Origin: Eledone cirrhosa
Taxonomy: Eukaryota
DNA length: 64,000 nucleotides
Direction: 5' to 3'
Assembly (NCBI GenBank): GCA_964016885.1
Contig: OZ024758.1
Coordinates: 33,046,001 to 33,110,000 of the forward strand
How positions within the stretch are numbered: the stretch's first letter is position 1; each line of letters starts with the position of its first letter. Of the stretch, positions 10,146-64,000 are shown in pieces. The position numbers and the translations under genes are program-made. Under the pieces are notes generated by a model that was not told the DNA's origin, searched no databases, and saw only the letters and a program-made list of their open reading frames with translations.

Positions 10146-10494
10146 ACTAGAACTTCAAATATAGATACTTTTTAAAATGATTAATCTTCCTTGTATATAT
10201 TTCATTAAAGAAATATATTTCTCCATTAATCCGAAATCACAGTAGTCTGTCGATAATCCTATTCACGCCGATGGTACGATCTGTATATTTTTTTTTTAAA
10301 TGCAACATGTGCGACGGGTCATTCACAGATTTGCATTTGCTGTGTAAACACAGTTAGTTAAATCTTCTCCCTTGTTGAAAATCCAGGAGTTGACTACTGC
10401 GATTTACCGATTAATGATGAAATATATTTCTTTAATGAAATATATACAAGGAAGATTAATCATTTTAAAAGGTATCTATATTTGAAGTTCTAAA
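10146..10494. repeat. ~75-bp inverted repeat pair
   Basis: AGAACTTCAAATATAGATAC...CATTAAAGAAATATATTT versus its reverse complement at 10418-10494. Confidence 0.75.
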
Positions 10495-11453
10495 GTGGTC
10501 ATGTACGTGTCATGACAAAAAGCACCCAGTCCACACTGTAAAGTGGTCGTGTAGGAGACATGGTATAACACTCCCAGTCCACACTGTAAATGTGGTTGGT
10601 GTTGGGAAGGGTATCCAACAGTAGAAAACCTGCAAGATACAGTCCTATACGAGCAAGACACGTAGAAGATAGACATTAAATGATGATGATGATGTATATA
10701 TATATTTACTATGATAAACAGTGTCGGTTGATCCAATCAATTAACCGACAACGATGTAATCATGTGGAAGCACTCAACGTCATGGATGCGACAATGCATT
10801 GAGTATATGGTATCAGAAGGAACAGAGATGGTATCCCATATTCAAGATGATTCTATTTCATTGCAATGGAATAGAATTCTATTGAATATGTGATGCCGTC
10901 TCTCTTCTTTTTCTTAATATATATATGTTTGTGTGTGTGTGTAAAATTGAATTAGAAGTTTTCCCCGTATGTTTGACTACAGAAAATAGACTAATAACAG
11001 GGCATATAACCACCCTGAACGAGAAAAATAGGCATCAGCTTCTAATTTAATTTTCAAATTCCGTTCACCCTTACTCATGCTAGCATGGAAAAATGGACAT
11101 TAAATGGAAATGATGATGATAATGATGTTCTAAACATGTTCCTGTCGATTCTGTGTCTCACTTGCATTTAACCAACATAACAGTTCTCTAATATATTGAG
11201 CAAACTGGCATTACAAGAGCAATTCCATCTTAATGTGTGAAATTGCACACCAAAAGGTGGCTGATGAGGTAGAGAGGCAGTTGTCTATTTGTCTTATGAA
11301 ACTTTTTCTGTGTGCAATTTCTGCTCTTATATGTATACACATACATATTGTTATAAAGACTTTGTTAAGATAAGTTTGTTTATTTTCATGTCTCCAAACT
11401 TTTCGGTTTGCATGAGATTGATTTGTATATGTTTATGTGTGTATATATATATA

Positions 11454-15316: not shown

Positions 15317-15706
15317 TCATGTAGGTGTCATGACAAAAAGCACCCAGCCCACGTTGTAAGGTGGTTGTGTAGGTGTCATGACAAAAAGTGCCAAGCCCAC
15401 ACTGTAAAGTGGTTGTGTAGGTGTCATGGCAAAAAGCACCCAGCCCACACTGTAAAGTGGTTGTGTAGGTATCATGGCAAAAAGCACCCAGCCCACACTG
15501 TAAAGTGGTTGTATAGGTGTCATGACAAAAAGCACACTTACATACTGTAAGGTGGTTGGCATTAGGAAGGGCATCCAGCCATAGAAACCAAGCCAAAAAC
15601 AGTTCTGTATGAGCCAGACATGGTCACCTGACTTGGCTTGTCTCAATGGGACATGTATAACCCATGCTAGCATGGAAAATGGACGTTAAACGATGATGGT
15701 GATGAT
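15317..15706 (+). mobile_element. RTE-tailed non-autonomous repeat with an internal 48-bp tandem (~4.5 units)
   Basis: GTGTCATGACAAAAAGCACCCAGCCCACACTGTAAAGTGGTTGTGTAG repeated; ends CATGCTAGCATGGAAAATGGACGTTAAACGATGATG. Confidence 0.75.
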
Positions 15707-17735: not shown

Positions 17736-18446
17736 TTCTCTTAGTAACTTCCATTACACCACACCCCCTCACACAGCAGCCATCTTTTGTATTGAAAACA
17801 TATGTAACCTTAAACATTCTAATGTATTCCGATGTATTTCTCTTCAAATGTTTTTTTTGTCCGTCCCCCTTTTTTATGCCCCCATACTGTACTATATTTT
17901 TTTTAGATTGATATTATCATGAAAGTGGATGTATTGTTTTGTTTGTTCTGTTTTTTTTCCTTCAAAAAATTCCATCAGAATGCATCTCAATTTATAACAT
18001 GAAAATCAATGGAAAAATAAATTCCACTTTACAGCAAGATTTTCAGAAATGCATTACTTCTGTCATGTGAGGCATTCCTGTAGAGGTAATACACGAGGGT
18101 GGGCTGGAAAGTTTATAGGTGGAGTATGAAGAAGTGATGCTAGAGCTATGAAATATTTCATGCATATTAAACCGGTCATATCCAGCCAGAACTCTCTCAC
18201 CTCTTTCTGTTTAAACCAGCTGTAACTGGCCGCTCATACCAACATTAAGGTATTGTTCTCAAAATAAATAACATCAAAATCTCGTAGATTCGATATTTAT
18301 TGTGAAAATGGCAATGGACGAAAAAATGCGAGGATAATTTACCAAAGATATTGGCAGTGAAATAAATGGAACTGTTCAGATTTTTTTTTCAATGTGGAAG
18401 ATTATGTAATGAAGTGTGAAAATATTAGAAGTGAAATGAAAAAGGA

Positions 18447-30059: not shown

Positions 30060-30075
30060 TGTTACAGGACACATA

Positions 30076-30856
30076 ATTATTTGTAGAGTGATCAATATCA
30101 AATTATTTGTAGAGGGATCAATATCAAATTATTTGTAGAATGATCAATATCAAATTATTTGTAGAGGGATCAATATCAAATTATTTGTAGAGGGATCAAT
30201 ATCAAATTATTTGTAGAGGGATCAATATCAAATTATTTGTAGAATGATCAATATCAAATTATTTGTAGAGGGATCAATATCAAATTATTTGTAGAGTGAT
30301 CAATATCAAATTATTTGTAGAGTGATCAATATCAAATTATTTGTAGAGTGATCAATATCAAATTATTTGTAGAGGGATCAATATCAAATTATCTGTAGAA
30401 TGATCAATATCAAATTATTTGTAGAGGGATCAATATCAAATTATTTGTAGAGTGATCAATATCAAATTATTTGTAGAGATCAATATCAAATTAATTGTAG
30501 GGTGATCAATATCAAATTATTTGTAGGGTGATCAATATCAAATTATTTGTAGGGTGATCAATATCAAATTAATTGTAGGGTGCTCAATATCAAATTAATT
30601 GTAGGGTGATCAATATCAAATTAATTGTAGAGGGATCAATATCAAATTATTTGTAGAGGGATCAATATCAAATTATTTGTAGAGGGATCAATATCAAATT
30701 ATTTGTAGAGTGATCAATATCAAATTATTTGTAGGGTGATCAATATCAAATTATTTGTAGAGGGATCAATATCAAATAATTTGTAGGGTGATCAATATCA
30801 AATAATTTGTAGGGTGATCAATATCAAATTATTTGTAGAGGGATCAATATCAAATT
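30076..30856. repeat. 26-bp minisatellite, ~30 units
   Basis: ATCAATATCAAATTATTTGTAGAG(G/T)G tandem. Confidence 0.95.
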
Positions 30857-33224: not shown

Positions 33225-34610
33225 TTGTTAAAGAAAAGAAATTGTCATCCCTTGAATTGCAAGAATGTTTTGCAAATTTTGAAGGTGCCAGATATCAGCC
33301 ATTTGTAGTCTATGATTTAGGGAGTTGTGCTCTTTGTCCACAAATCCAAGTTCAGTTATACTTTGGTTCAAGCGGGTTGGTATATAACCTGTAGCTCCAA
33401 TAATGAATGGTATGAAGCTGAAGGTGTATCTTGGATACTGGATCTGCAAACTCCTCATCAATGCTCCGTAGATGTCCTCCTTCTCGTGTATTATTTTTAC
33501 AACGTTGACATCAAGTGGGCAGCTGATCTCTATAACAGAGCACGTTTTCAATGTGTGGTCCCAAGCAACAATATCAGGCCGGTTGTGCTTTAATTTGGTG
33601 GCAGTCTTTATTTTCAGGTTCCACCAGTATTCCTTAGTGCCATCTGTTTCAACATATTCCTCCTCATTTGTTTTTAATTTTGTTTTCCTAAGTGCACTCC
33701 AGATGGTTCTAGCTATCACATCGTGTTTCATAGGGAGGTAGTAACGAGACGACATTCTTTCGCAGTTGGCAACAATGTGGCTAACATCTTTGATCTTTGT
33801 TTTACATAGCCTACATTTATTGTCAGCTGCTGGCCCTCCTCTTTTGTGCAGCAGATATTTGGTAGGGAGTTCTTGTTCCTGTATTGCATAAAGATATCTT
33901 TCAAGGTGGGATGTCATAAACTTGTTGGAACTCCATGCCAGGCTTTTTTAATGATTTATCCCCTCTATGGTCTGTGTTTTCATCTCAGGTACCCATGCAC
34001 AACTTTCTCTGTAAATTGGCCCATTTTTTATGTTGTTCGAACATTGAATAGGATCTTCCAATTTCCCTGGGAGAGAGATTTATATCAGGCCTTATTCCAT
34101 ATCCTACTCCAGATCAGTGGCTATCCTAATGATATTATTTTCTTCATGCTAATAAACCTGGGCAAGATGGTTGCTGACCTTTTTCTCCTGCTAAAGATGT
34201 TGCTTCAGTGTTACTATCCGGGTCTCATATGATGTTAATATGGATTTTAGACTCCGGCCACCTTCCTTGCGTGAGAAGTATAGCCTATCCACATCACCAT
34301 TGATGTTAAAGTTTCTGGTAACACTGAGAGGCTTGCGAGTTCTAACATCCATCTCACTTAGTTCTTGCAATGACCAGTTCAGTAGGCCAAGTGTTAGTGT
34401 TAGGATTGTCACAGCATAAGTATTGTGGGCAATGTACTTGTTGTACGCTGACAGTTCTGATGACCATATTTTCTTTACTCTCCGGAAGTATTCAGTTCTG
34501 GTTCTCTCCTTATTTATGGGTCCATCATATCTGACAATCTCATCCTGTCCAAGATATCTGTAGTTGTCACCTGACTGTAGAGGTTGTATTCTCAAGCCAT
34601 TCATCTCTAG
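33225..34610 (-). mobile_element. R4/Dong-clade non-LTR fragment (CCHC finger and restriction-like endonuclease)
   Basis: YRYLG; DVDRLYFSRKEGGR; AIQEQ; CRLC...HIVANC; KHD; HNRPDIVAWD...IEISCP; PFIIGATG. Confidence 0.85.
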
Positions 34611-34785
34611 ATTTGTATGTATATATATATATATATGTGTATATATATATATATATATAGTTATACTTTGGGAGGGTCATGTTGCAAATAAAAACACATG
34701 CACCTGTTGGTTTTCACTTCAATTTATTATAAATTTCCAGTTGGTTGGTTGGTTGTTTCGATAACCAGAAGATTGTTTATATATT

Positions 34786-36005: not shown

Positions 36006-36526
36006 TTTACCTCACATAACATTTACATTACTCTATATATACTATTGTATTGTCACAGTAAAGGCTTTACCTCACATAATATCTCACATAACATTTACAT
36101 TACTCTATATATACTATTGTATTGTCACAGTAAAGGCTTTACCTCACATAATATCTCACATAACATTTACATTACTCTATATATACTATTGTATTGTCAC
36201 AGTAAAGGCTTTACCTCACATAATATCTCACATAACATTTACATTACTCTATATATACTATTGTATTGTCACAGTAAAGGCTTTACCTCACATAATATCT
36301 CGCATAACATTTACATTACTCTATATATACTATTGTATTGTCACAGTAAAGGCTTTACCTCACATAATATCTCACATAACATTTACATTACTCTATATAT
36401 ACTATTGTATTTTCACAGTAAAGGCTTTACCTCACATAATATCTCACATAACATTTACATTACTCTATATATACTATTGTATTTTCACAGTAAAGGCTTT
36501 ACCTCACATAATATCTCACATAACAT
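36006..36526 (+). repeat. 72-bp minisatellite, ~7 units, left of the Tx1 insertion
   Basis: ACATTTACATTACTCTATATATACTATTGTATT(G/T)TCACAGTAAAGGCTTTACCTCACATAATATCTCACATA; period 72 (36091 to 36163). Confidence 0.95.
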
Positions 36527-36737
36527 CTCGTATACGAGAGACGTGTGTTGACGTGTGTGAACAAGCTCGGCTACCGAGTCGGATTTACTTACTCAAAAAG
36601 TGAGTTTTGATTAATTTTTTTATACTGTAATATACGTTAACCCCTTGCCTTGGTCGTCAAACTTTGAGTTTATTTATTTTCGCCCCTTTTTGGGGCGAAT
36701 TTTCCAGTTAAAAATTTATTACGACAAACTAATAGAA

Positions 36738-38471
36738 ATGGACGGAATTTTCACATCTCATCCTAACGTGAAAGCCACGCCCCCTAAGAAAGGTGATACA
36801 GAGAAGCTAGAAGCACAAGGCTCTAAGTCTTCCCTCCTGACTTCTGCAAAAGAAACATGGAACACGGAATTAAAAGAAAAATTTGAAAAAATGGGTGAAA
36901 ACCCAGAAAGTCACATAAACGCAGACAAAAACAACAACGACAATAACAGCAATAGTCACAACACCAACCAAGGAAAAAATAACGATAACACCAAACAAAG
37001 CGAACCCACTACTGGTACCTCCTTTGCACAGGCGGTCCGGAAAACACAAACCTGCAAGCAACTGGACATTACAACTCTGAGAGAAAAGATGAAGGAAGCG
37101 AAACAGTATGTAACTTTCAAAGAAGGAGGAGACTTCACAATCACCTCCCCACAAGAAATCAAAAGAGACACGACGCTAAGAACGATATCTTTCAGAACAA
37201 TTTCCAACATAACAAGGAAACCAACTCAATTATCCCAAAAAGAGATTGAGCTGGTCCTAAAAAATGTGTGGAGTGATATATCGTTCATACAAAAAGGGCC
37301 ACTCTATGGGAATATAACGGTCCTAATGAAGGATCAATTGACGGCCAGGAAATACTCTGTGGCACCAATTGTTTCCAAGCTACATACATTTTCCCCCACA
37401 TATTTAGGGAAAAGAACGCAGAAGATAAGGGTCTCCGGAATCCGGCCAAATGCATGCATTTCCTGGGTACTAACAGGGTTTTTAGAAGACGAGGACGGAA
37501 TCCTCTCAGTAGGAGAAGTCACCACAGACGTTTTCGGCGGTTTGAGCGTGGAGGTTCTGGTCCAAATGAGACCAGAACGAATCGCTAGAATACCACAGAG
37601 GGTGTCCCTCGATGGAGAAACATTTATATATATTTCAGCCGAGGGTAGGAGGCCCATATGTTACTACTGTTCAAGCAGGGGTCATCTAAGGGCTGCTTGT
37701 CCTCAATTGACAAAAAAAAAGGCTCTTTTGCCTACACCCCACACACCACCACCGCCACCACCACCACCACCACCACCACCACCACCACAACAACAAAAGC
37801 AACAGGGAAAAATAACACAAGACACGGCCCCACCCAAAACAACTCCCAAAACACACACAAATACAACAAAACCCCAAAATACACCACTACCCGACAGCAC
37901 GGACGAGGACCCAGCGGAAACGGCACCTAGTGACGAAGAGGGGGAACCCTTCCAACCTGTAAAAAGGAAAAAAAGAAAGCACCACTCGAACATAAACGAA
38001 ACAAACACACAACCACCAACAAAAACAAAACAAACAGAACAAACAAAATCCCCCCCACCCCAAAACATAACACATACAACAAAACGTAAGCACACACAAG
38101 AACAACAAACAAACACAACACAAATAAAACAGTATACATACATTAACACAAATAACAAAGAACTAGTAAAAACAATACACAAAGACCCTTTGGTGGAAAC
38201 TGAAGGACAATTCTTTGCAAGCGCGGCCAACAAACCGCATTTAAAAATGATAAGACTCCCAATGGACACCTATGCAAAACTAAGAGAGAACTTTCCTGAG
38301 GACGTGGGGAAAACATGTACTCGACCCTATAACCGCGTCCTCTTGAAACGTTTCCCCACCCACACCTCACCAAACACCCCCACTCCACCACAGAACAACA
38401 CCCCACCAAACAACCCCTCCAATACGCCCATGGATATTGTGCAACCTGCTCCTCAGGAGCCGAACAGGTAG
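36738..38471 (+). CDS. Retrotransposon ORF1 (gag-like nucleic-acid-binding protein with a CCHC knuckle)
   Basis: First ATG at 36738 within the 36645-38471 frame; SFAQAV motif, CYYCSSRGHLRAAC zinc knuckle, poly-Pro tract, basic VKRKKRK. Confidence 0.85.
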   Translation: MDGIFTSHPNVKATPPKKGDTEKLEAQGSKSSLLTSAKETWNTELKEKFEKMGENPESHINADKNNNDNNSNSHNTNQGKNNDNTKQSEPTTGTSFAQAVRKTQTCKQLDITTLREKMKEAKQYVTFKEGGDFTITSPQEIKRDTTLRTISFRTISNITRKPTQLSQKEIELVLKNVWSDISFIQKGPLYGNITVLMKDQLTARKYSVAPIVSKLHTFSPTYLGKRTQKIRVSGIRPNACISWVLTGFLEDEDGILSVGEVTTDVFGGLSVEVLVQMRPERIARIPQRVSLDGETFIYISAEGRRPICYYCSSRGHLRAACPQLTKKKALLPTPHTPPPPPPPPPPPPPPQQQKQQGKITQDTAPPKTTPKTHTNTTKPQNTPLPDSTDEDPAETAPSDEEGEPFQPVKRKKRKHHSNINETNTQPPTKTKQTEQTKSPPPQNITHTTKRKHTQEQQTNTTQIKQYTYINTNNKELVKTIHKDPLVETEGQFFASAANKPHLKMIRLPMDTYAKLRENFPEDVGKTCTRPYNRVLLKRFPTHTSPNTPTPPQNNTPPNNPSNTPMDIVQPAPQEPNR

Positions 38472-38492
38472 GTCCTTCCTCTTTTAACCAAC

Positions 38493-41400
38493 ATGGCTGA
38501 TATAAGAGTTGGGTGTCTGAATGTACGTGGCCTGGGACTGTCTTGGAAACAAGGCAAACTTTTAAACGATCTCAGGTCGCATAGAATGGATGTAATGGCT
38601 ATTTGCGAGTCCAGGATCAGCAGCGAGCACCAACTGGCGCCCCTCTTCGACGACTTTGAGATCTTCGCATCTCTCTGTCAACCGGGGGGTGGGGGTGGAG
38701 TTGTCGTTCTGCTGCGAAAACACCTGGGCCTCGCCATACAGAAGGTGCACCTGGACCCGGAGGGTCGACTGGTGGTTTTAGACGTCGGCAGTAGTGAAAG
38801 TGGAGCCCTTAGACTAATAGCTGTGTACGCCCCTTTTTGGGCAGCGCGGCCGGAATACTTCCAACGTCTGGAAACTTTTCTGGGAACGTCCCGCTCCTTG
38901 CTTTTAGTGGGGGACTGGAATGGTATCCTGGATGCACGTTGGGACTATGTAGGGGCATGTGCCAATAGAGGGGGGTGTAAAAGCCTCAAAAGGTTAATCG
39001 GCCGATTTGACCTGGCCGATAGATATCGACTAGATTTTCCGACTGTACCACTATGGACGTGGACCAATCGCAGTGGAACATCTAGGTCGTACCTAGATAG
39101 GGTCCTAGTTAGAGAGAACGATAGGGACACATTTAGCTGTCCAAAAATGTTCATGGTTGACTATTCGGATCACAAGTTAGTGACCTGCATAGCCAACCTT
39201 GATAGAACCCATAGACAGGGACCCGGTTACTGGAAGCTGAACTTGTCCTTACCGAGAAGCAAAGCTTACAGTAAACGGATTAGCACGTTAGTTAAGCAGA
39301 GTTTGACAGGGGCAATTGTCAACAACAGGTGGTGGAGCTCTCTTAAGAGAGCAATTAGAATAGAATCGATAGGTTTTAGTCAGGAATTAGCAAGGGATAG
39401 GAACAAGACGGAAAGGGAATTAGTAGATAGAGTAGAAGAGGCGATTAGGAGTGGCAATGTAGCCGGCGTGCTGGCATCAAGAATGGCCTTAGACCAGTTC
39501 TTTGAGGTGAAGCATGAAGGCTGCGTTGTCAGGAGTAAAATACGTGCTCTGGGTAATGAGGGAGCCAAAGCTGTAAGCTGGGCCCGAGTGACAGAGGCAA
39601 AAAGTGGGAACAAGTCCACGATTCGGTCTTTGAAGGACCAGGATGGGCGTGTGATCCTTGAACCTGGGCAGATGTGTGCGGCCTTTCAGCGGCACTTTGC
39701 ACGACTGTTCGAGAGGAGCGGCGCGCCGGGTGAGACTATGGATTTCAATCCATACCTCGACGGTCTGCCGCGCCTCTCGGACGCGGAGGCGAAGTCCTGC
39801 GAAAGGACGATTTCAGCTGCTGAGATAGGGGCGGCGCTGAGCCAATGCGGCAAACGCAAATCCCCGGGTCTCGATGGTCTACCATACGAGCTATATGTAG
39901 CGATGCCGGACTTGTTCTCCGATATCCTCGAAGCGGTCTACTGCAACTGGCAGCAGAACGGGAGAATTCCCAGTTCTGTGACCAAGGGCGTAGTTACGCT
40001 GGTGAGGAAGGATGAGAACAAGGGGGATGACATAAGTAACTTCAGGCCCATAACTCTGCTAAATACAGAGTTAAAGATTTTGGCCAAGGTGTTAGCGAAG
40101 AGGTTGGCGCTTGTCGTTGGAAACCTGGTGGGAGAAGCGCAGACATGCGCAATCCCGTCCAGGTCCATTCACGACAATCTCCACCTTATGCGATACATCA
40201 TAAAGAGGGTAGGGAATGAACCCGGCTTTGGTGGGGCCCTGATCAACTTGGATCAATCTAAAGCTTTCGATAGGGTTGACCATCGTTACCTGGATGCGGT
40301 GCTCGCGGCGGCAGGCTTCGGACCCGTTTTCAGGGGTTGGATTGCTGCGATGCACAGCAGCAACGTCTGCTCAAGGGTCAAGGTGAACGGCCACCTCTCG
40401 GAGCCGTTCCAAATCATGCGATCCATCCGACAGGGATGCCCTCTCTCCTCCCTACTGTATGTGCTGGCTCTTGAGCCACTACTGCGGAAGTTGGAGCGGT
40501 TGCAGGGCATCCCTTTGGAACCGGGATTGCAGAAAGCGGCGTCGGCCTACGCCGATGACGTGACAGTAATGGTGTCGAAAACCTCGCAAATCGGTGAGAT
40601 CGGCACCTTACTGGAGGAATATGAAAGGTTTACAGGAGCCAAGCTGAACCGGGACAAGTCCGTCGGTTTGCAACTCGGAACATGGAGAGGCAAACCGATG
40701 CCCTCCAACGACGTCGTCGGACGCTGGACGGAGGGCCCGGTGAAGCTGCTTGGGGTCTGGTTCGGACCAGACCTCCAGGTGGAGAAAAACTGGAACGAGG
40801 TAACGGCCAGGGTGTTTGCACTCACCCAGAAGTGGGCCCAGTGCAAACTATCCCTGAAAGGTCGAGCGGAGGTGGCGAATACTTATATAGCATCCGTCAT
40901 CTACTACTGCTTGACCGACGTGCCTTGCCCAGTGAAAAGACTCGCCAAAATGGAGTGCGCGCTGTTCCAATTTCTTTGGAACAAGCGGACCCCTTTGGTG
41001 AGGAGATCCATCTGCTGTCAACACCCTTCGAAAGGAGGGCTGGGGATGCCGTGGCTACAGATGCGTAAACACGCATTAAGGCTACGGCATCTCCAGGTAT
41101 TCCTCACCGGTCAACCGGTGTGGGCCCCGTTTGTGAGGCGAGCCTTTCCCAGACTCGTCTCGCTCACCGAGCTGCAATCCTGGGTCAAGCAAAGACCGAG
41201 AAAAGTGGGCGACTGGCACATTGAATGTGCCCAGGCGCTCACGGCCCTCTGGAAAGCGGACCCGGCAATCAGTGGAGACTCCACCTCGACATTCTATAGA
41301 GGGTTGGTACGCAGCAGGTGCGACGATGCTCTCGGAGAAGCTCTAGGCATGGAGGAAGATGAACTGGCCAGTCTGTTCGGTAGGACGTTTGGCCCTGGAC

Positions 41401-41930
41401 CGATGGACAACTTCCAAAAGTCCCTGGCTTGGCAGTGCTACCGAGGGGCTCTACCCGTTCGAGACAAGCTCCACAGGCATGGGAGCCTGGGTAGAGATCC
41501 TTTGAATAAGATCTGTCCGAGATGCGTGCATGATGACGAAACCGTTGCGCACGCATTCGTACACTGCCCAGGCATTGCTGACCTGTGGGGCTATGTGGAA
41601 CGACTACTGTCGAGGGTGGGACCAATCCGGTTGACCACCGAGTCCATTGTCACGATCAAACCGCCTCCCCCTTTCAAAAACGAAGGAGAGGCGGTTTTTC
41701 TCTGTGTGGTAGCCATGGCTAAAGAAGTTGTATGGTGGACGAGGCTGAAAGGGCTGAGGTCAGACACCTTTCTCTCCGGCCAACAACTGGTCCCCTTTTT
41801 CAAATACCATTTTAAAAGAAGGATCAGAATGGAGAGAGAGGTGCTCTACCCCAGCAAGTTTTATGAAAGGTGGGTGAAAGTAGGGAGAATGGCCAGAGTG
41901 AATGGGTCTTCTCTCTATATCAGCCTGTAG
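38493..41930 (+). CDS. Retrotransposon ORF2: APE endonuclease, reverse transcriptase and C-terminal zinc-binding domain (1145 aa)
   Basis: CLNVRG, GDWN, SYLD, SDH; GYWKLN; KSPGLDG, FRPITLLN, DQSKAFD, RQGCPLS, AYADD; GGLG; CPRC...ETVAHAFVHC; no stops. Confidence 0.95.
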   Translation: MADIRVGCLNVRGLGLSWKQGKLLNDLRSHRMDVMAICESRISSEHQLAPLFDDFEIFASLCQPGGGGGVVVLLRKHLGLAIQKVHLDPEGRLVVLDVGSSESGALRLIAVYAPFWAARPEYFQRLETFLGTSRSLLLVGDWNGILDARWDYVGACANRGGCKSLKRLIGRFDLADRYRLDFPTVPLWTWTNRSGTSRSYLDRVLVRENDRDTFSCPKMFMVDYSDHKLVTCIANLDRTHRQGPGYWKLNLSLPRSKAYSKRISTLVKQSLTGAIVNNRWWSSLKRAIRIESIGFSQELARDRNKTERELVDRVEEAIRSGNVAGVLASRMALDQFFEVKHEGCVVRSKIRALGNEGAKAVSWARVTEAKSGNKSTIRSLKDQDGRVILEPGQMCAAFQRHFARLFERSGAPGETMDFNPYLDGLPRLSDAEAKSCERTISAAEIGAALSQCGKRKSPGLDGLPYELYVAMPDLFSDILEAVYCNWQQNGRIPSSVTKGVVTLVRKDENKGDDISNFRPITLLNTELKILAKVLAKRLALVVGNLVGEAQTCAIPSRSIHDNLHLMRYIIKRVGNEPGFGGALINLDQSKAFDRVDHRYLDAVLAAAGFGPVFRGWIAAMHSSNVCSRVKVNGHLSEPFQIMRSIRQGCPLSSLLYVLALEPLLRKLERLQGIPLEPGLQKAASAYADDVTVMVSKTSQIGEIGTLLEEYERFTGAKLNRDKSVGLQLGTWRGKPMPSNDVVGRWTEGPVKLLGVWFGPDLQVEKNWNEVTARVFALTQKWAQCKLSLKGRAEVANTYIASVIYYCLTDVPCPVKRLAKMECALFQFLWNKRTPLVRRSICCQHPSKGGLGMPWLQMRKHALRLRHLQVFLTGQPVWAPFVRRAFPRLVSLTELQSWVKQRPRKVGDWHIECAQALTALWKADPAISGDSTSTFYRGLVRSRCDDALGEALGMEEDELASLFGRTFGPGPMDNFQKSLAWQCYRGALPVRDKLHRHGSLGRDPLNKICPRCVHDDETVAHAFVHCPGIADLWGYVERLLSRVGPIRLTTESIVTIKPPPPFKNEGEAVFLCVVAMAKEVVWWTRLKGLRSDTFLSGQQLVPFFKYHFKRRIRMEREVLYPSKFYERWVKVGRMARVNGSSLYISL

Positions 41931-42167
41931 GTGAAAGAAGAGGAAAAAGAGGAGACGAGGGAAGCACCTACTCTTTGTGCTCCTGAGGAGAAGGGTTACA
42001 CATTTTTTCCGGGGTGTGTGCGACCCATGTTAATGCCCCCTCCCTATTGAGGACTTCGTTTGTTGTTGTTATTTCATTGTTATATTTTTGTACTCGTTAA
42101 TTATATGTAAACTTCCCCCCTTGTATCTGTCCCTACCTTTTGTGCCCTAGTGGCAAATAAAGAAACC

Positions 42168-42878
42168 ACTCTATATATACTATTGTATTGTCACAGTAAA
42201 GGCTTTACCTCACATAATATCTCACATACCATTTACATTACTCTATATATACTATTGTATTGTCACAGTAAAGGCTTTACCTCACATAATATCTCACATA
42301 ACAATTACATTACTCTATATATACTATTGTATTGTCACAGTAAAGGCTTTACCTCACATAATATCTCACATAACATTTACATTACTCTATATATCCTATT
42401 GTATTTTCACAGTAAAGGCTTTACCTCACATAATACCTCACATAACATTTACATTACTCTATATATACTACTGCATTTTCACAGTAAAGGCTTTACCTCA
42501 CATAATATCTCACATAACATTTATATTACTCTATATATACTATTGTATTGTCACAGTAAAGGCTTTACCTCACATAATACCTCACATAACATTTACATTA
42601 CTCTATATATACTATTGTATTTTCACAGTAAAGACGTTACCTCACATAATATCTCACATAACATTTACATTACTCTATATATACTACTGTATTTTCATGG
42701 TAAACACTTTATTTAACATAATGATCTCACATAATACCAAATCTATGAGATTTTGATATTATGTATTTTGAGAACAATACCTTAACATCAGTATGAGTGG
42801 GCAGTTACAGCCGGTTTGAACAGAAAAGGGAGAGAGAATTCTGACCGGATATGACCAGTTTAAATGCTAAAGGGTTAA
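42168..42878 (+). mobile_element. Right part of the 72-bp array (~7.5 units) plus the MITE body and right terminus
   Basis: The array resumes at ACTCTATATATAC, runs into the MITE body, and ends TAAATGCTAAAGGG-TTAA. Confidence 0.9.
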
Positions 42879-50340: not shown

Positions 50341-50566
50341 TTAACCCTTTAGCATTTAAACCAGCTGTATCTAACCAGAATTCTCTCACTTCTTTCTGTT
50401 CAAATTAGACATAACCAGCTGATAATACTTATGTTAAAGTATTGTTCTCAAAATATATATCAAAATCTCGTAGATTTGATATCATGTGAGATGTTTATGT
50501 GAAATAAAAAGTTTGCCGTGAAAATACAATAGTAAATATAGAGTAATGTAAATGGTAAAGGGTTAA
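50341..50566 (-). mobile_element. piggyBac-like TTAA MITE, single-unit form
   Basis: TTAA-CCCTTTAGCATTTA ... TAAATGGTAAAGGG-TTAA; the body is the reverse complement of 42700-42878. Confidence 0.85.
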
Positions 50567-50702
50567 ATGACATTGTCCTGAATTGAGGAAAAGATGCATT
50601 AGATAATATAATTCTAGATATTTCTAAAAGAGCAAGAATGCTTTTGATTATATGGTTACCTTAGAGCTAAACAACAACAACCATTTTTGAAACTTGAACT
50701 AA

Positions 50703-54931: not shown

Positions 54932-55156
54932 TTAACCCGTTTCCATTACTCTACATTTATTATTATATGTTCATGGTAAAGTCTCTACCGCACATAATTA
55001 TCTTGCATAATATTGAATCTATGACATTTTGATATTATTATTTTTTTTAGAACAATACCTTAACATCAGTATGAGCAGCTGGTTACAGTTGGTTGGTACA
55101 GAAAGAGGTGAGAGATTTCTGGCTGGCAACGGCTGGTTTAATGCCAACAGAGTTAA
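54932..55156 (+). mobile_element. Diverged single-unit TTAA MITE
   Basis: TTAACCC...AGAACAATACCTTAACATCAGTATGAG...AGAG-TTAA. Confidence 0.7.
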
Positions 55157-55378
55157 AACTGGTTCTATTAAAATGTTCAAATTTAAATTCAAATTTCCGC
55201 CTGAAATGTCCTTATTACAAGGTAGCATTAGATTTAAGTAGTTAAATATTTGTCTTTTACTGTTGAGTTGAAAGTTGTTTCATTTATTATTAGCAAAAGA
55301 ACCTGCCATTGCTGAGTACACCTTTTGCCACTTTAAATAACATAACATGCCATTAAATAGCCCCAGAACTCTGCTATT

Positions 55379-55584
55379 TTAACTCTTTAGCATTTACATT
55401 ACTCTATATATAATCTTGTATTTTTATGGTAAACACTTTATTTCACATAATTATCTCACATAATATGGAATCTATGAGAACAATACCTTAACATAAGTAT
55501 GAGTGGCTGGTTATGGTCGGTTTGAACAGAAAGAGATGAGAGAAATCTGGTCGGATACAGCAGGTTTAAATGCTAAAGGGTTAA
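55379..55584 (+). mobile_element. piggyBac-like TTAA MITE, single-unit form
   Basis: TTAA-CTCTTTAGCATTTACATTACTCTATATA...CTCACATAA...TAAATGCTAAAGGG-TTAA. Confidence 0.9.
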
Positions 55585-56177
55585 GGGGAGAAAGATTTAA
55601 ACTATATGATGTCATCATGGAAGATGGCCGTTAAACGATGATGACGCTCCGGGAGCTAATAGCCTATGTATCAAATTTGAACAAAATCGGATGGAACTGT
55701 GGAAATGCATCGCACACAGACAGATATTTTTGTTTATATATAGATTAATTATTAATCGATTACTCTGATAATTAAAACACAAAGACAGTAAATATTTATT
55801 AGAAATATAAAAATGAAAGATGATAATGGCAGTGCTGATTCAGCGTCACAGAGTGTGGGACAAGACTGACTTGAATTACAGGTACAATTTGGCTTCCTAA
55901 CAGTTTCTGTCAACCCAGTTTCACTCACAAGACATGGGTTGACCTAGCACTGTAGTAAATGACACTTTGTCATGATGTCATGCAGTCAGTTTGACCCCAA
56001 AACTTAATGATCATGAAGTGAACCTCTAAACCATTCAGCCATGCTACATCCCGGTCAAAATAGTTTGGACATATAATGTCATGAGATGACACATGCTGAA
56101 TAGAGTAACATGTTGTGGCATTGGAAGAGGGGGGGGTCAGAGAAGATGTAGAAATAAATTATGAAGTATGAGGTCAT

Positions 56178-56675
56178 GTCAAGTGGTCGTGTTGGTGACA
56201 TGATAAAAAGCACACAGTCCACACTAATGTGGTTGAGTTGGTAACACGACAAAAAGCACCCAGTTCACACTGTGAAATGGTTGTGTTGGTGACACGACAA
56301 AAAGCACCCTGTCCACACTGTAAAATGGTTGTGCTGGTGTTGCAACAAGAAGCGCCCAGCCCACACTCTAGCGGGGTTGTATTGATGACACAATGAAAAG
56401 CGTCCAGTCTACATTGTAAAGTGGTCAAATTGGTGACACAACAAAAAGCACCCAGACCACTGTAAAGTGGTCATTTTAGTTGCATGATAAAAGGTACCCA
56501 GTCCACACTGTAAATGTAGTTGACGTTAGGAAGGGTATCAAACTGTAAAAATCAAGCCAGAAACGGTTCTGTATGAGCAACACAGGGTCATCTGGTCTGA
56601 CTTGTCTCACAACAGGACAACTCCTCTAACTCATGCTAGCATGAATGAACGTTAAACGGTGAGGATGATGATGAG
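56178..56675 (+). mobile_element. RTE-tailed repeat with ~7 diverged 48-bp internal units
   Basis: AAAAGCACCCAGTCCACACTGTAAAGTGG units; CATGCTAGCATG...CGTTAAACG tail. Confidence 0.7.
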
Positions 56676-58800: not shown

Positions 58801-60375
58801 CCTTGTACAGCTATAAATATGAAATATGCTAGGCTGGAGTAGTGCCCCTGTCAAACTTCCAGATATACTATATGAAATAGCTAAAATGTCATGAAGAGCA
58901 AACACTGATTCCACTGCCGCCACCGCCACCACCACCACCACCGCCACCACCACCATCACCATTCTACATTTATTTTCAATATTTGTATGGGTTAGATAGG
59001 TTATCACATTCTGAAGCCAGACATATCAGATGACTGTGTCTCACTCATTAGTTCCATTCTACAGCTTGATGTATAGAAGCCATTTGATAGTGTACTTTTT
59101 ATAGGGAACCAGCATTACAACTTTACAGGATGGACTGATTTCTAAACAAATAATTCAAAGATGCCATCTCTAAAAAACAATAGCTAAGTTAGTGCTAATA
59201 TACTTAATGTAGGAAGGATTTAAAATGCTAACTAGAAATAGCTATTACATTGAATAAAAGTGATATTAGTCAATGACTAATATTACTTTAATTATTTCAG
59301 CAAATAGAAGAGAGAGTATCAGACATTTTATGGTCTTGTTATGACATCCTTACTAACAACTTCACTGCACTTGCCAAACTAATGTTGAAAATATTACTAA
59401 GCAAATGTACAAGATTATACACTGGTTGACATGAAAAATAGAAACTGGAGAATAAAATAATATTAATGACTAGTAGTGAAGTTTTTTTTATTGCATAATG
59501 TCCCTTGCATTACATATGTTAATATTAACTTAATTTTTATTGCCATCATCAAAATCATCGTCATTTTAATGTCCATTTTCCCTGCTAGTAGCAATAATCA
59601 ATAGGTGAGTTAGGTGACAAAAAATGTTGGCACTACGAAGGGCATCTGGACATAAAATATTGGCTTAACAAAGATCCCATGATGTGTATGAGGCCTGGGA
59701 TCGTAAGGTTAACTCCTGCTTTAAGGCCTGTCATTGGGCTTGTAAGGCTAACCCCTGCTTTAACAGAGAAAATGGCCTTAACCTTTTCGTTATCGTATTT
59801 CTGATTAAGTATTCTGTATTTTAAGTAATTAGTGAAGAATGAAAGAAGTATTTACTAAAATTACAATTTCATTAATGTTCTGACAAGGTTTTGAATTAAG
59901 TAGGAAACATTTAAAATGGGTTGTTTTGTTTTTTGTTTCATAAAAACAGAGGTAGTTTTTTATGAAAGGGGTTAAAGGGCTTGTCATTGTTGTAACTATT
60001 GATTACTAAATTAAACACTAACGACATTTGGAAAAAAATACTCAATGATCATCAGTTTGTAGTTCAAAAGTTTAACCCTTTTGATGCTAACACACAAAAA
60101 TCAACCTATGGGTCTATATAACAAAACCACCAATTCTAAAGGGTTCCTATTTGAATTTAAATCTCCCAGCATAATGTTTTTCTTTTTTATAACCTTCTGA
60201 TCAGTTATACCATTTTACAATTTTAATAATGAAATAATAAGTTTAGTAAATCCAACCAAATTCTTCACCAATTAAATAAAGTTTATTTCATTAGAAATAT
60301 GATCATGAAAGGGCTTTAAATATCCTGTAAAGATAAATCAGTTCTGATGTCTTCAAAGTGTGCATCCATCTCATT

Positions 60376-60643
60376 TAATCATGTAGTTCCATGCCATATG
60401 ATTTAAACATGTAGTTTCATACCACATGGTTTAATTATTAGGTTCATGCCACATGGTTTAATTATGTGGTGTCATGCCACATGGTATAACCATGTAGTGC
60501 CATGCCACATGGTATAACCATGTAGTGTCATGACACATGGTAAAACAATGTAGTTTCATGCCACATGGTTTAATCATATAGTTTCATGCCACATAGTTTA
60601 ATCATGTAGTGTCATGCCACATGGTATAACCATGTAGTTTCAT
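60376..60643. repeat. 28-bp minisatellite, ~9 units
   Basis: CATGTAGTTTCATGCCACATGGTTTAAT-like tandem. Confidence 0.85.
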
Positions 60644-62360: not shown

Positions 62361-64000
62361 TTAACCTTTTAACATTTACATTACTCTATATATACTATTG
62401 TATTTTCACAGTAAAGGCTTTACCTCACATAATATCTCACATAACATTTACATTACTCTATATATACTATTGTATTTTCACAGTAAAGGCTTTACCTCAC
62501 ATAATATCTCACATAACATTTACATTACTCTATATATACTATTGTATTTTCACAGTAAAGGCTTTACCTCACATAATATCTCACATAACATTTACATTAT
62601 TCTATATATACTATTGTATTGTCACAGTAAAGGCTTTACCTCACATAATATCTCACATAACATTTACATTACTCTATATATACTATTATATTTTCACAGT
62701 AAAGGCTTTACCTCACATAATATCTCACATAACATTTACATTACTCTATATATACTATTGTATTTTCACAGTAAAGGCTTTACCTCACATAATATCTCAC
62801 ATAACATTTACATTACTCTATATATACTATTGTATTTTCACAGTAAAGGCTTTACCCCACATAATATCTCACATAACATTTACATTACTCTATATATACT
62901 ATTATATTTTCACAGTAAAGGCTTTACCTCACATAATATCTCACATAACATTTACATTACTCTATATATACTATTGTATTTTCACAGTAAAGGCTTTACC
63001 CCACATAATATCTCACATAACATTTACATTACTCTATATATACTATTATATTTTCACAGTAAAGGCTTTACCTCACATAATATCTCACATAACATTTACA
63101 TTACTCTATATATACTATTATATTTTCACAGTAAAGGCTTTACCTCACATAATATCTCACATAACATTTACATTACTCTATATATACTATTGTATTTTCA
63201 CAGTAAAGGCTTTACCTCACATAATATCTCACATAACATTTACATTACTCTATATATACTATTGTATTTTCACAGTAAAGGCTTTACCTCACATAATATC
63301 TCACATAACATTTACATTACTCTATATATACTATTGTATTTTCACAGTAAAGGCTTTACCCCACATAATATCTCACATAACATTTACATTACTCTATATA
63401 TACTATTATATTTTCACAGTAAAGGCTTTACCTCACATAATATCTCACATAACATTTACATTACTCTATATATACTATTGTATTTTCACAGTAAAGGCTT
63501 TACCTCACATAATATCTCACATAACATTTACATTACTCTATATATACTATTGTATTTTCACAGTAAAGGCTTTACCTCACATAATATCTCACATAACATT
63601 TACATTACTCTATATATACTATTGTATTTTCACAGTAAAGGCTTTACCCCACATAATATCTCACATAACATTTACATTACTCTATATATACTATTGTATT
63701 GTCACAGTAAAGGCTTTACCTCACATAATATCTCACATAACATTTACATTACTCTATATATACTATTGTATTTTCACAGTAAAGGCTTTACCTCACATAA
63801 TATCTCACATAACATTTACATTACTCTATATATACTATTGTATTTTCATGGTAAAGGCTCCCTCACATAACTATCTCACATAATATCGAATCTACGAAAT
63901 TTTCATATTTATTTTGAGAATAATATCTTAACATCAGTATGAGTAGCTAGTTATGGCCACTTTGAATTCTGGCCGGATACGGCCGGTTTAAATGCTAAAG
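62361..64000 (+). mobile_element. TTAA MITE carrying ~21 tandem 72-bp units (uninterrupted array)
   Basis: Starts TTAA-CCTTTTAACATTTACATT, array runs to ~63880, MITE body follows, and the window ends inside the right TIR (TAAATGCTAAAG). Confidence 0.92.

Follow-up and report, generated by a model that had tools for sequence, protein, structure and literature searches.

A young LINE family inserted at a single base within the 72-bp repeat of a piggyBac-derived MITE of Eledone cirrhosa, with a likely target-derived leader

A complete LINE located in the middle of a tandem array, which itself belongs to a MITE, raises the question of whether the element arrived there by chance or recognizes the repeat as its target and, if so, how it is joined to the repeat at both ends. 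We addressed this question for a window of 64,000 nucleotides of the Eledone cirrhosa genome (the whole stretch of DNA that was analyzed) and for the related copies elsewhere in the assembly. An initial annotation had described a two-ORF APE-RT element midway in a 72-bp array, an uninterrupted array near 62361, single-unit MITE copies near 50341, 54932, and 55379, and a missing left TIR in the LINE-bearing MITE copy. All of these were located again: the array has 7.2 units to the left of the LINE and 7.9 to the right, the left TIR is absent at 36006, the first single-unit copy lies on the minus strand, and the right MITE terminus at 42861-42878 reads TAAATGCTAAAGGG-TTAA. The features of the window are as follows.

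36006..36526, plus strand: tandem array to the left of the LINE (repeat measured over 36011-36526), 7.2 units, period 72
36502..36526, plus strand: likely leader of target origin, covering unit positions 41-65 and perhaps beginning at 37 (variant tracts, exact 25-mer)
36502..36562, plus strand: weak predicted 61-nt hairpin (z -2.4) between the leader and LINE nt 1-35
36527..42167, plus strand: full-length, target-specific APE-RT LINE (putatively L1 group, Tx1-like), delimited by its junctions
36738..38471, plus strand: ORF1, 577 aa, one CX2CX4HX4C knuckle, proline/threonine-rich tail
38493..41930, plus strand: ORF2, 1145 aa, with APE endonuclease, reverse transcriptase, and C-terminal zinc finger (Pfam and motifs)
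41931..42167, plus strand: LINE 3' UTR, AATAAA at 42156-42161, without poly(A) tail
42168..42734, plus strand: right part of the array, beginning at the invariant insertion site, 7.9 units
42735..42878, plus strand: MITE body, piggyBac-derived, right TIR at 42861-42874, TTAA at 42875-42878
50341..50567, minus strand: single-unit MITE copy flanked by TTAA on either side
54932..55156, plus strand: diverged single-unit MITE copy
55377..55584, plus strand: single-unit MITE copy
62361..64000, plus strand: MITE with an empty array of 21.0 units (62370-63883), cut off by the window end

The element is indeed complete: ORF1 and ORF2 share the same frame and are free of internal stops. ORF1 has no Pfam match, and its CCHC knuckle lies at aa 308. 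ORF2 matches the Pfam domains RVT_1, Exo_endo_phos, and zf-RVT and carries both APE and RT motifs. Two ORFs, the second combining APE, RT, and a C-terminal zinc finger, make up the architecture of the Tx1 clade. The best solved relative of ORF2 is human L1 ORF2p (E 5e-52), followed by R2 (2e-23), in a library without other clades; a protein atlas yielded only generic RT/APE clusters, and no named Tx1 sequences were among the hits of homologue searches. The AATAAA motif of the 3' UTR ends six bases short of the 3' junction. Both ORFs are open in 26 of 92 copies, and the family is young.

The genome contains about 270 near-identical copies. Exact copies of a LINE-internal 32-mer run exactly into one position of the 72-bp unit in 243 of 273 cases, and there are 32,602 exact empty target sites in 3.0 Gb; thus, the junction is not due to chance. 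In a census where copies were chosen by a LINE-internal motif alone, with flank bases left out of the query, the 3' end fell on the identical base of the unit in 92/92 copies (91 differed at no more than two of 12 bases, and the remaining one had lost 2 bases), and a single copy lacked the last 13 bases of the LINE. The target specificity that the initial annotation had left open after one insertion is therefore borne out across the genome by the flanks of young copies, none of which is random in the census. Tx1 elements have been considered target-specific when more than 20% of their flanks belong to one repeat (PMC4494074, in part); both proportions given above lie beyond that value. Two other readings were rejected: in the copy L055, which appeared to be off target, the unit is interrupted after 15 bases by another element and the array then resumes, and the sequence upstream of L070 and L072, considered as a second site-specific element, is an LTR-like fragment instead.

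The host MITE has TTAA on both sides and TIRs starting with CCC. The genome also contains autonomous piggyBac elements (PF13843, 2.57 kb, with a 561-aa open frame), which share 21 of the first 23 bases with the MITE and are 72-77% alike over 77 bases at the right end. By these shared ends with an intact piggyBac, the MITE is piggyBac-derived, and the suggested likeness to Tx1D holds in this respect. The accompanying idea of an amplifying safe haven did not survive in the sense of MITE transposition, because a divergence of 18% among the host MITE bodies marks them as old and most MITE copies have a single unit.

At the 5' end, one common junction is kept by 92 of 100 copies (about 92% full-length), and in full-length copies seven bases of the upstream unit are missing. 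The 25-base stretch that directly precedes the LINE is of the family type even in arrays of another local type. At unit positions 41-65 before the LINE, 0/28 local variants were kept, whereas 12/23 were kept at the same positions in the first downstream unit, which served as the control (P 9e-6); at unit positions 1-36, the count was 32/48. The exact family 25-mer precedes the LINE in 81 of 92 cases, compared with 584 of 1,379 ordinary units. Four copies (L105, L108, L109, and L182) have a chimeric local/family unit while 10/10 or 12/12 of the neighboring units carry the local variant. Truncated copies have non-family upstream sequence in five of six cases, and a family-type upstream unit is thus not needed for cutting. 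Four other copies (L096, L106, L189, and L190) have a short leader of 12 bases, so the length of the overwritten tract varies. Private variants in the last upstream unit agree with the upstream neighbor in 17/21 cases and with the downstream neighbor in 4/21; some insertions may therefore pair downstream instead of upstream. A 65-bp target duplication as a rule was rejected on the same 17/21 and because the flanking units differ. L105, L136, and L123 resemble long duplications; multi-unit duplications were counted as individual cases only, since their control depended on the test.

These tracts make it likely that the LINE RNA begins with a leader of target sequence that pairs with the upstream unit, in the way suggested for R2. 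The leader hairpin has z from -2.0 to -3.2 in a window picked by eye, and a hairpin of this type was not significant in sister families. Leader variants shared among copies were too few to show tracking with the LINE tree, no joint deletion of the leader and a hairpin arm was seen among copies, and an Rfam ribozyme search of the plus strand at 36300-36900 gave no match, although diverged ribozymes can escape such a search.

Taken together, we consider it probable that this is a young sequence-specific LINE that inserts at a single base within the 72-bp repeat of a piggyBac-derived MITE, that its RNA starts 25-29 bases upstream, and that its cDNA anneals to the neighboring unit and is joined full-length. 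The APE domain would nick the bottom strand at the target site and so prime reverse transcription, and the top strand would be cut 1-10 bases downstream, as deduced from truncated copies. The cDNA end would then anneal to the upstream unit and replace that stretch; tandem arrays, rather than single-unit MITEs, would therefore take whole copies and pass the leader to the next round. The RNA 5' end could arise either from a start site inside the unit or by cleavage.

Three other explanations need to be weighed. The protein alone might set the 5' junction, by a second cut seven bases upstream that requires family-type positions 41-65 and involves no overwriting. The clean 7-base loss and the family-type flanks would be equally expected from such a cut, but chimeric units in uniformly local arrays would not, nor would truncated copies with downstream cuts and variant upstream units, and we regard this explanation as unlikely. 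Far less probable still is a single LINE insertion after which piggyBac transposase or segmental duplication multiplied the MITE-array-LINE composite, even though an intact piggyBac with matching ends is present and a few neighboring duplicates exist (L189/L190; L186/L187, identical over 3.7 kb). The LINEs have a median pairwise divergence of 1.2% (93 sequences; the median was used because rearranged copies distort the LINE tree), whereas the host MITE bodies (n=51) are 18.4% apart, with 3.7% in the closest pair. Unit counts (0-33 upstream and 0-23 downstream of the LINE) and variants differ between sides. Six 5'-truncated copies bear their own duplications of 1-9 bp, each beginning at the insertion site, and a seventh, L363, lies in a single-unit MITE. 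The divergence gap and these duplications indicate independent insertions rather than composite hops, and the gap refutes the composite as the main route.

On the one hand, the lack of poly(A) and the identical repeat on both flanks could mean that the LINE itself supplies the array as its tail and head, or that collapsed repeats gave rise to an assembly artifact. On the other hand, locus-specific variants begin at base 6 past the junction, the flanks lead into different MITE bodies and TIRs, empty arrays are common, and the 100 loci examined are spread over 18 contigs, which leaves this explanation with hardly any credibility. Target-annealed insertion at a fixed site thus remains the preferred reading.

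A separate question is where the arrays come from. Array units across loci are 2-4% from one common type, the MITE bodies of array loci are 11% from the column majority, and single-unit copies are 15% away. It is conceivable, although rather doubtful, that the LINE makes and renews its own target: through its nicks, or through RT copying of array RNA, one young type of 72-bp unit would have spread to thousands of loci whose single-unit MITEs had long been dead. Uniform units in diverged MITEs and multi-unit duplications flanking some insertions speak for it; an old-unit signature in the first array unit of just 1/17 arrays, and no extra cross-locus sameness found in the leader zone, count against it. 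The uniform units could also be explained by piggyBac-induced repair or plain ectopic conversion.

In families about 70% alike, 30/30 copies end in (ATT)n, and the 5' ends of these sister families are likewise preceded by (ATT)n or (CTAT)n. This suggests that the focal family may descend, via a target switch, from an ancestor that targeted microsatellites.

The invariant 5' junction, the likely element-borne target leader, and the microsatellite-targeting sisters are new relative to the initial annotation. The way in which LINEs complete their 5' end has long been debated, and the majority of LINEs are truncated. Here, local variants of the repeat serve as natural barcodes, and the overwritten tract can be read for each insertion from the genome. 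They directly support the idea that an APE-type element joins its 5' end by annealing to the target; the literature examined describes such joining for R2. Intact copies, single-base specificity, and the high rate of full-length delivery recommend this young family as a candidate both for studying the mechanism and for developing RNA-templated insertion tools. Its close relatives that target (ATT)n and (CTAT)n open the change of endonuclease specificity to comparison. LINE-in-piggyBac-MITE nesting also extends beyond vertebrates.

Among known systems, Tx1L of Xenopus laevis reportedly inserts into an internal tandem repeat of Tx1D, and its junction may be a plain target duplication, where the Eledone element has a fixed 7-base loss and an overwritten 25-base tract. 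By analogy, the nested system appears to work like Tx1L/Tx1D, a sequence-specific APE-RT element in a non-autonomous piggyBac (PMC4494074, PMC1950540, both in part): in both, a non-autonomous piggyBac receives independent LINE insertions at a fixed position, although here the host is an invertebrate, the 72-bp target is unrelated, and the MITE is 220 bp long. The crocodilian Tx1-Mar and Tx1-9_AMi, Tx1-type LINEs that prefer Mariner-N4 or Harbinger elements, likewise have truncated copies that demonstrate independent insertions (PMC4494074, in part), but they are old and described as showing a preference, whereas the Eledone family is young and single-base specific. Kibi and Koshi are microsatellite-specific Tx1-clade LINEs of fish (PMC3812793, in part). 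The Eledone sister families also occupy microsatellites, though different repeats, whereas the focal family would have moved to a complex 72-mer. The uniform 5' junction and overwritten target tract are R2-type traits, seen here at the DNA level only. The R2 endonuclease is restriction-like, the R2 target is rDNA, and R2 has an HDV-like ribozyme; the Eledone element has a MITE repeat, an APE domain, and no Rfam ribozyme match. In 5' structure, the element resembles those R2 elements of springtail, earwig, and others whose RNA is cleaved upstream; for these, uniform 5' junctions, such as one with a constant loss of 7 bp of target, formed from RNA with 9-36 nt of target are described (PMC3774820, in part).

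The focal LINE is a full-length APE-RT element lying within an array of 72-bp repeats carried by a MITE (one repeat is referred to here as a unit, with positions numbered 1-72). The main features of the locus are as follows.

36527-42167: focal element, 5,641 bp, flanked by 7.2 and 7.9 array units
36738-38471: ORF1, 577 aa, open, with one CCHC knuckle
38493-41930: ORF2, 1145 aa, open, in the same frame as ORF1
42861-42878: TIR and TTAA of the MITE body into which the array runs
62370-63883: uninterrupted (empty) 21-unit array

The initial annotation had described a complete two-ORF element without stops amid the array, an array running into a MITE body that ends in TTAA, a missing left TIR, a further uninterrupted array of about 21 units and three single-unit MITE copies; all of these were found. 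ORF2 contains the RVT_1, Exo_endo_phos and zf-RVT domains with every catalytic motif that we checked; among solved structures, human L1 ORF2p is the closest relative. The closest named protein belongs to the octopod Argonauta hians (68% across the RT region), which makes an octopod host probable. The sequence shows a TATA-like run (unit positions 5-12) and, following the AATAAA of the LINE, a U-rich stretch; a promoter and a 3'-processing signal, respectively, would be guesses. Elsewhere, the window holds another partial MITE-body copy (18162-18297, minus strand), an RT-like open-frame fragment of a different element just upstream of the focal locus (34191-34676, minus strand), and short arrays with a 48-bp unit (10491-10596, 15320-15535, 56177-56522) or with 26-bp (30 copies) and 28-bp units (30075-30856; 60374-60643). 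The dispersed 48-, 26- and 28-bp arrays may be other element-borne minisatellites.

In the 3.0-Gb assembly (G000), where the window corresponds to C19:33046001-33110000, an internal 32-mer of the 3' UTR occurs in 273 exact copies; lengthened across the junction into the repeat, it occurs in 243, and a 30-mer near the LINE 5' end in 266. We compared 100 LINE copies with their flanks: 92 unselected copies, taken from the first 100 places of the internal 32-mer with 8 inner tandem neighbours omitted, and 8 copies from a junction-selected list. The 3' junction is at one identical unit base in all 92 unselected copies; 91 have at most 2 mismatches over 12 junction bases (one of them without the last 13 LINE bases), and the remaining one has a 2-base loss. 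None of the 92 has a poly(A) tail, and 4 of the 8 omitted neighbours were observed at the same junction. The 8 bases following the junction vary less than elsewhere (3/800 vs 130/10,328 in other units, P 0.03). The flanks, whose tabulation the initial annotation had proposed for its possible target-specific system, are not random, and the focal LINE is target specific. There are 32,602 exact empty sites and 16,351 exact MITE right ends in the assembly, which puts site occupancy at about 1%. On the four largest contigs (C1-C4), 33 of 37 copies (places of the 32-mer) are less than 32 Mb from an end, where 16% would be expected; density on these contigs is 0.023 per Mb vs 0.17 elsewhere. No array junctions were present in 329 kb of loci retrieved for other elements. 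Arrays and LINE may be restricted to distal regions and small chromosomes.

Median divergence among LINE copies is 1.2% (93 sequences), and the 51 readable host MITE bodies are 18.4% apart, with the closest pair at 3.7%. The LINE is preceded by 0-33 array units and followed by 0-23, and in 12 of 100 cases a second copy occurs further down the same array. The 5' end is missing in 8 of 100 copies. Six of these carry duplications of 1-9 bases (as many as 10 if microhomology is counted) that begin at the common insertion site; of the other two, one has its junction where full-length copies do and one borders a different repeat. A 45-bp LINE copy in a single-unit MITE (L363) has a 2-base duplication. 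Truncated copies with short duplications are the signature of target-primed reverse transcription and rule out transposition of the MITE-array-LINE composite as the principal route. Of the 92 copies having a 5' end, 26 retain two open ORFs and 36 an open ORF2. Up to six copies share an array in two runs, L092-L093 (C1:4.22-4.26 Mb) and L147-L152 (C10:40.7-41.4 Mb), where a single 65-base unit separates some neighbours; neighbours are mostly 5-19 bases apart over 3.7 kb and are therefore mostly separate insertions.

In the 92 of 100 copies that retain the 5' end, the junction leaves the upstream unit incomplete by 7 bases. Local variants, defined as those in 50% or more of the neighbouring units, persisted in the last unit before the LINE in 32 of 48 instances at positions 1-36, 0 of 1 at 37-40 and 0 of 28 at 41-65, vs 12 of 23 at 41-65 in the first downstream unit (P 9e-6). 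The 25 bases directly before the LINE (the leader) are exactly of the family type, i.e., the common unit sequence, in 81 of 92 copies vs 584 of 1379 ordinary units, although units within one array are not independent, so that the P value of this comparison exaggerates its significance. At four loci (L105, L108, L109 and L182), a local variant present in every neighbouring unit is missing only from the unit before the LINE, and upstream sequence of non-family type was found beside 5 of 6 truncated copies. The simplest reading, inferred from DNA, is that the LINE RNA would begin at unit position 37-41 and that the cDNA end would anneal to the upstream unit. Several observations count against a single rule: a 12-base short leader in four copies, informative variants matching the downstream unit (4 of 21), a five-unit block repeated on both sides of the LINE in L105 and L136, and five private variants repeated in L123. 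The repeats at these three loci may reflect downstream pairing or unequal exchange after insertion. Together with the first 35 LINE bases, the leader forms a predicted 61-nt hairpin (z -2.4; -3.2 over 109 nt and -2.0 over 151 nt), and the LINE 5' region has no Rfam ribozyme match. At L070 and L072, an LTR-retrotransposon-like fragment adjoins a leader-bearing unit.

Units of the LINE-bearing arrays are 2.8% from one common unit (1,379 units), and those of five arrays located via the MITE end are 1.8-7.8% from it; MITE bodies are 11% from the column majority in both array groups, and single-unit MITE copies are 15% from the array unit. Because array units are close to the common type while the bodies have diverged, arrays across loci look younger than their host MITEs. 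The LINE could be the cause of these young, shared-type arrays, but private variants common to the first and last units occur in only 1 of 17 arrays, and the leader zone is not distinct in local-variant frequency (28 over 25 positions vs 48 over 36), both of which count against this explanation.

Among 30 MITE copies sampled in genome order, with units counted by a parser, 16 were classed as having one or two units (one two-unit copy being grouped with the single-unit ones), 5 bear arrays of 8-23 units, and 8, one of them LINE-filled, had no unit detected. A PF13843 search of the assembly identified piggyBac elements of ~2.57 kb with open 561-aa frames. The MITE is piggyBac-derived, because its ends match those of these elements (21 of 23 bases; right end 72-77% over 77 bases). 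One intact family with the 561-aa frame and near-identical copies (L252-L260, e.g., G000:C1:430502180-430506232) has likely been active recently and is the likely mobiliser of the MITE.

In the same assembly, all 30 copies examined from families ~70% alike terminate in (ATT)n, with (ATT)n before the 5' end in 9 of 11 pattern-fetched copies. Six copies from families 80-85% alike terminate in (CTAT)n, (TCTG)n or AT-rich simple repeats, with (CTAT)n ahead of two 5' ends. A tree of the last 1.5 kb, rooted at the midpoint, places the focal family as sister of the CTAT/TCTG group and the ATT families outside (support 94-100). A target switch from microsatellite to MITE site would be the parsimonious reading of this tree, the root of which is not fixed by an outgroup. 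The loci L311-L360 represent sister LINE families that are large and young and have (ATT)n and (CTAT)n as their specific targets; their copies are often full length and arranged as head-to-tail tandems. The 3' 24-mer of sister families has 3,034 matches within 2 mismatches.

We found no published account of the present system; Repbase, Dfam, subscription papers and supplements, which were outside our search, could hold one or might describe Tx1 elements with a comparable 5' leader. An octopus repeat annotation reports 13 recently active L1-Tx1 families without using the words target, satellite or nested (PMC13282606). The accessible literature also lists Keno, Kibi and Koshi (PMC4640811, PMC3812793), places the Tx group (PMC3747384) and covers SART1 (PMC7265360). 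Xenopus Tx1 has the non-autonomous piggyBac Tx1D as its insertion target, and crocodilian Tx1-Mar resides in Mariner-N4 (PMC4494074); the specificity of the Tx1L endonuclease was confirmed (PMC1950540). Annealing of the cDNA end upstream was proposed for R2 elements that retain 9-36 nt of target sequence on their RNA, and springtail R2 has a uniform 7-bp target deletion (PMC3774820). The focal LINE works like Tx1L/Tx1D, and its 5' joining step appears R2-like. The system is real and target specific, and to nesting of the Tx1L/Tx1D type it would add R2-like 5' joining.
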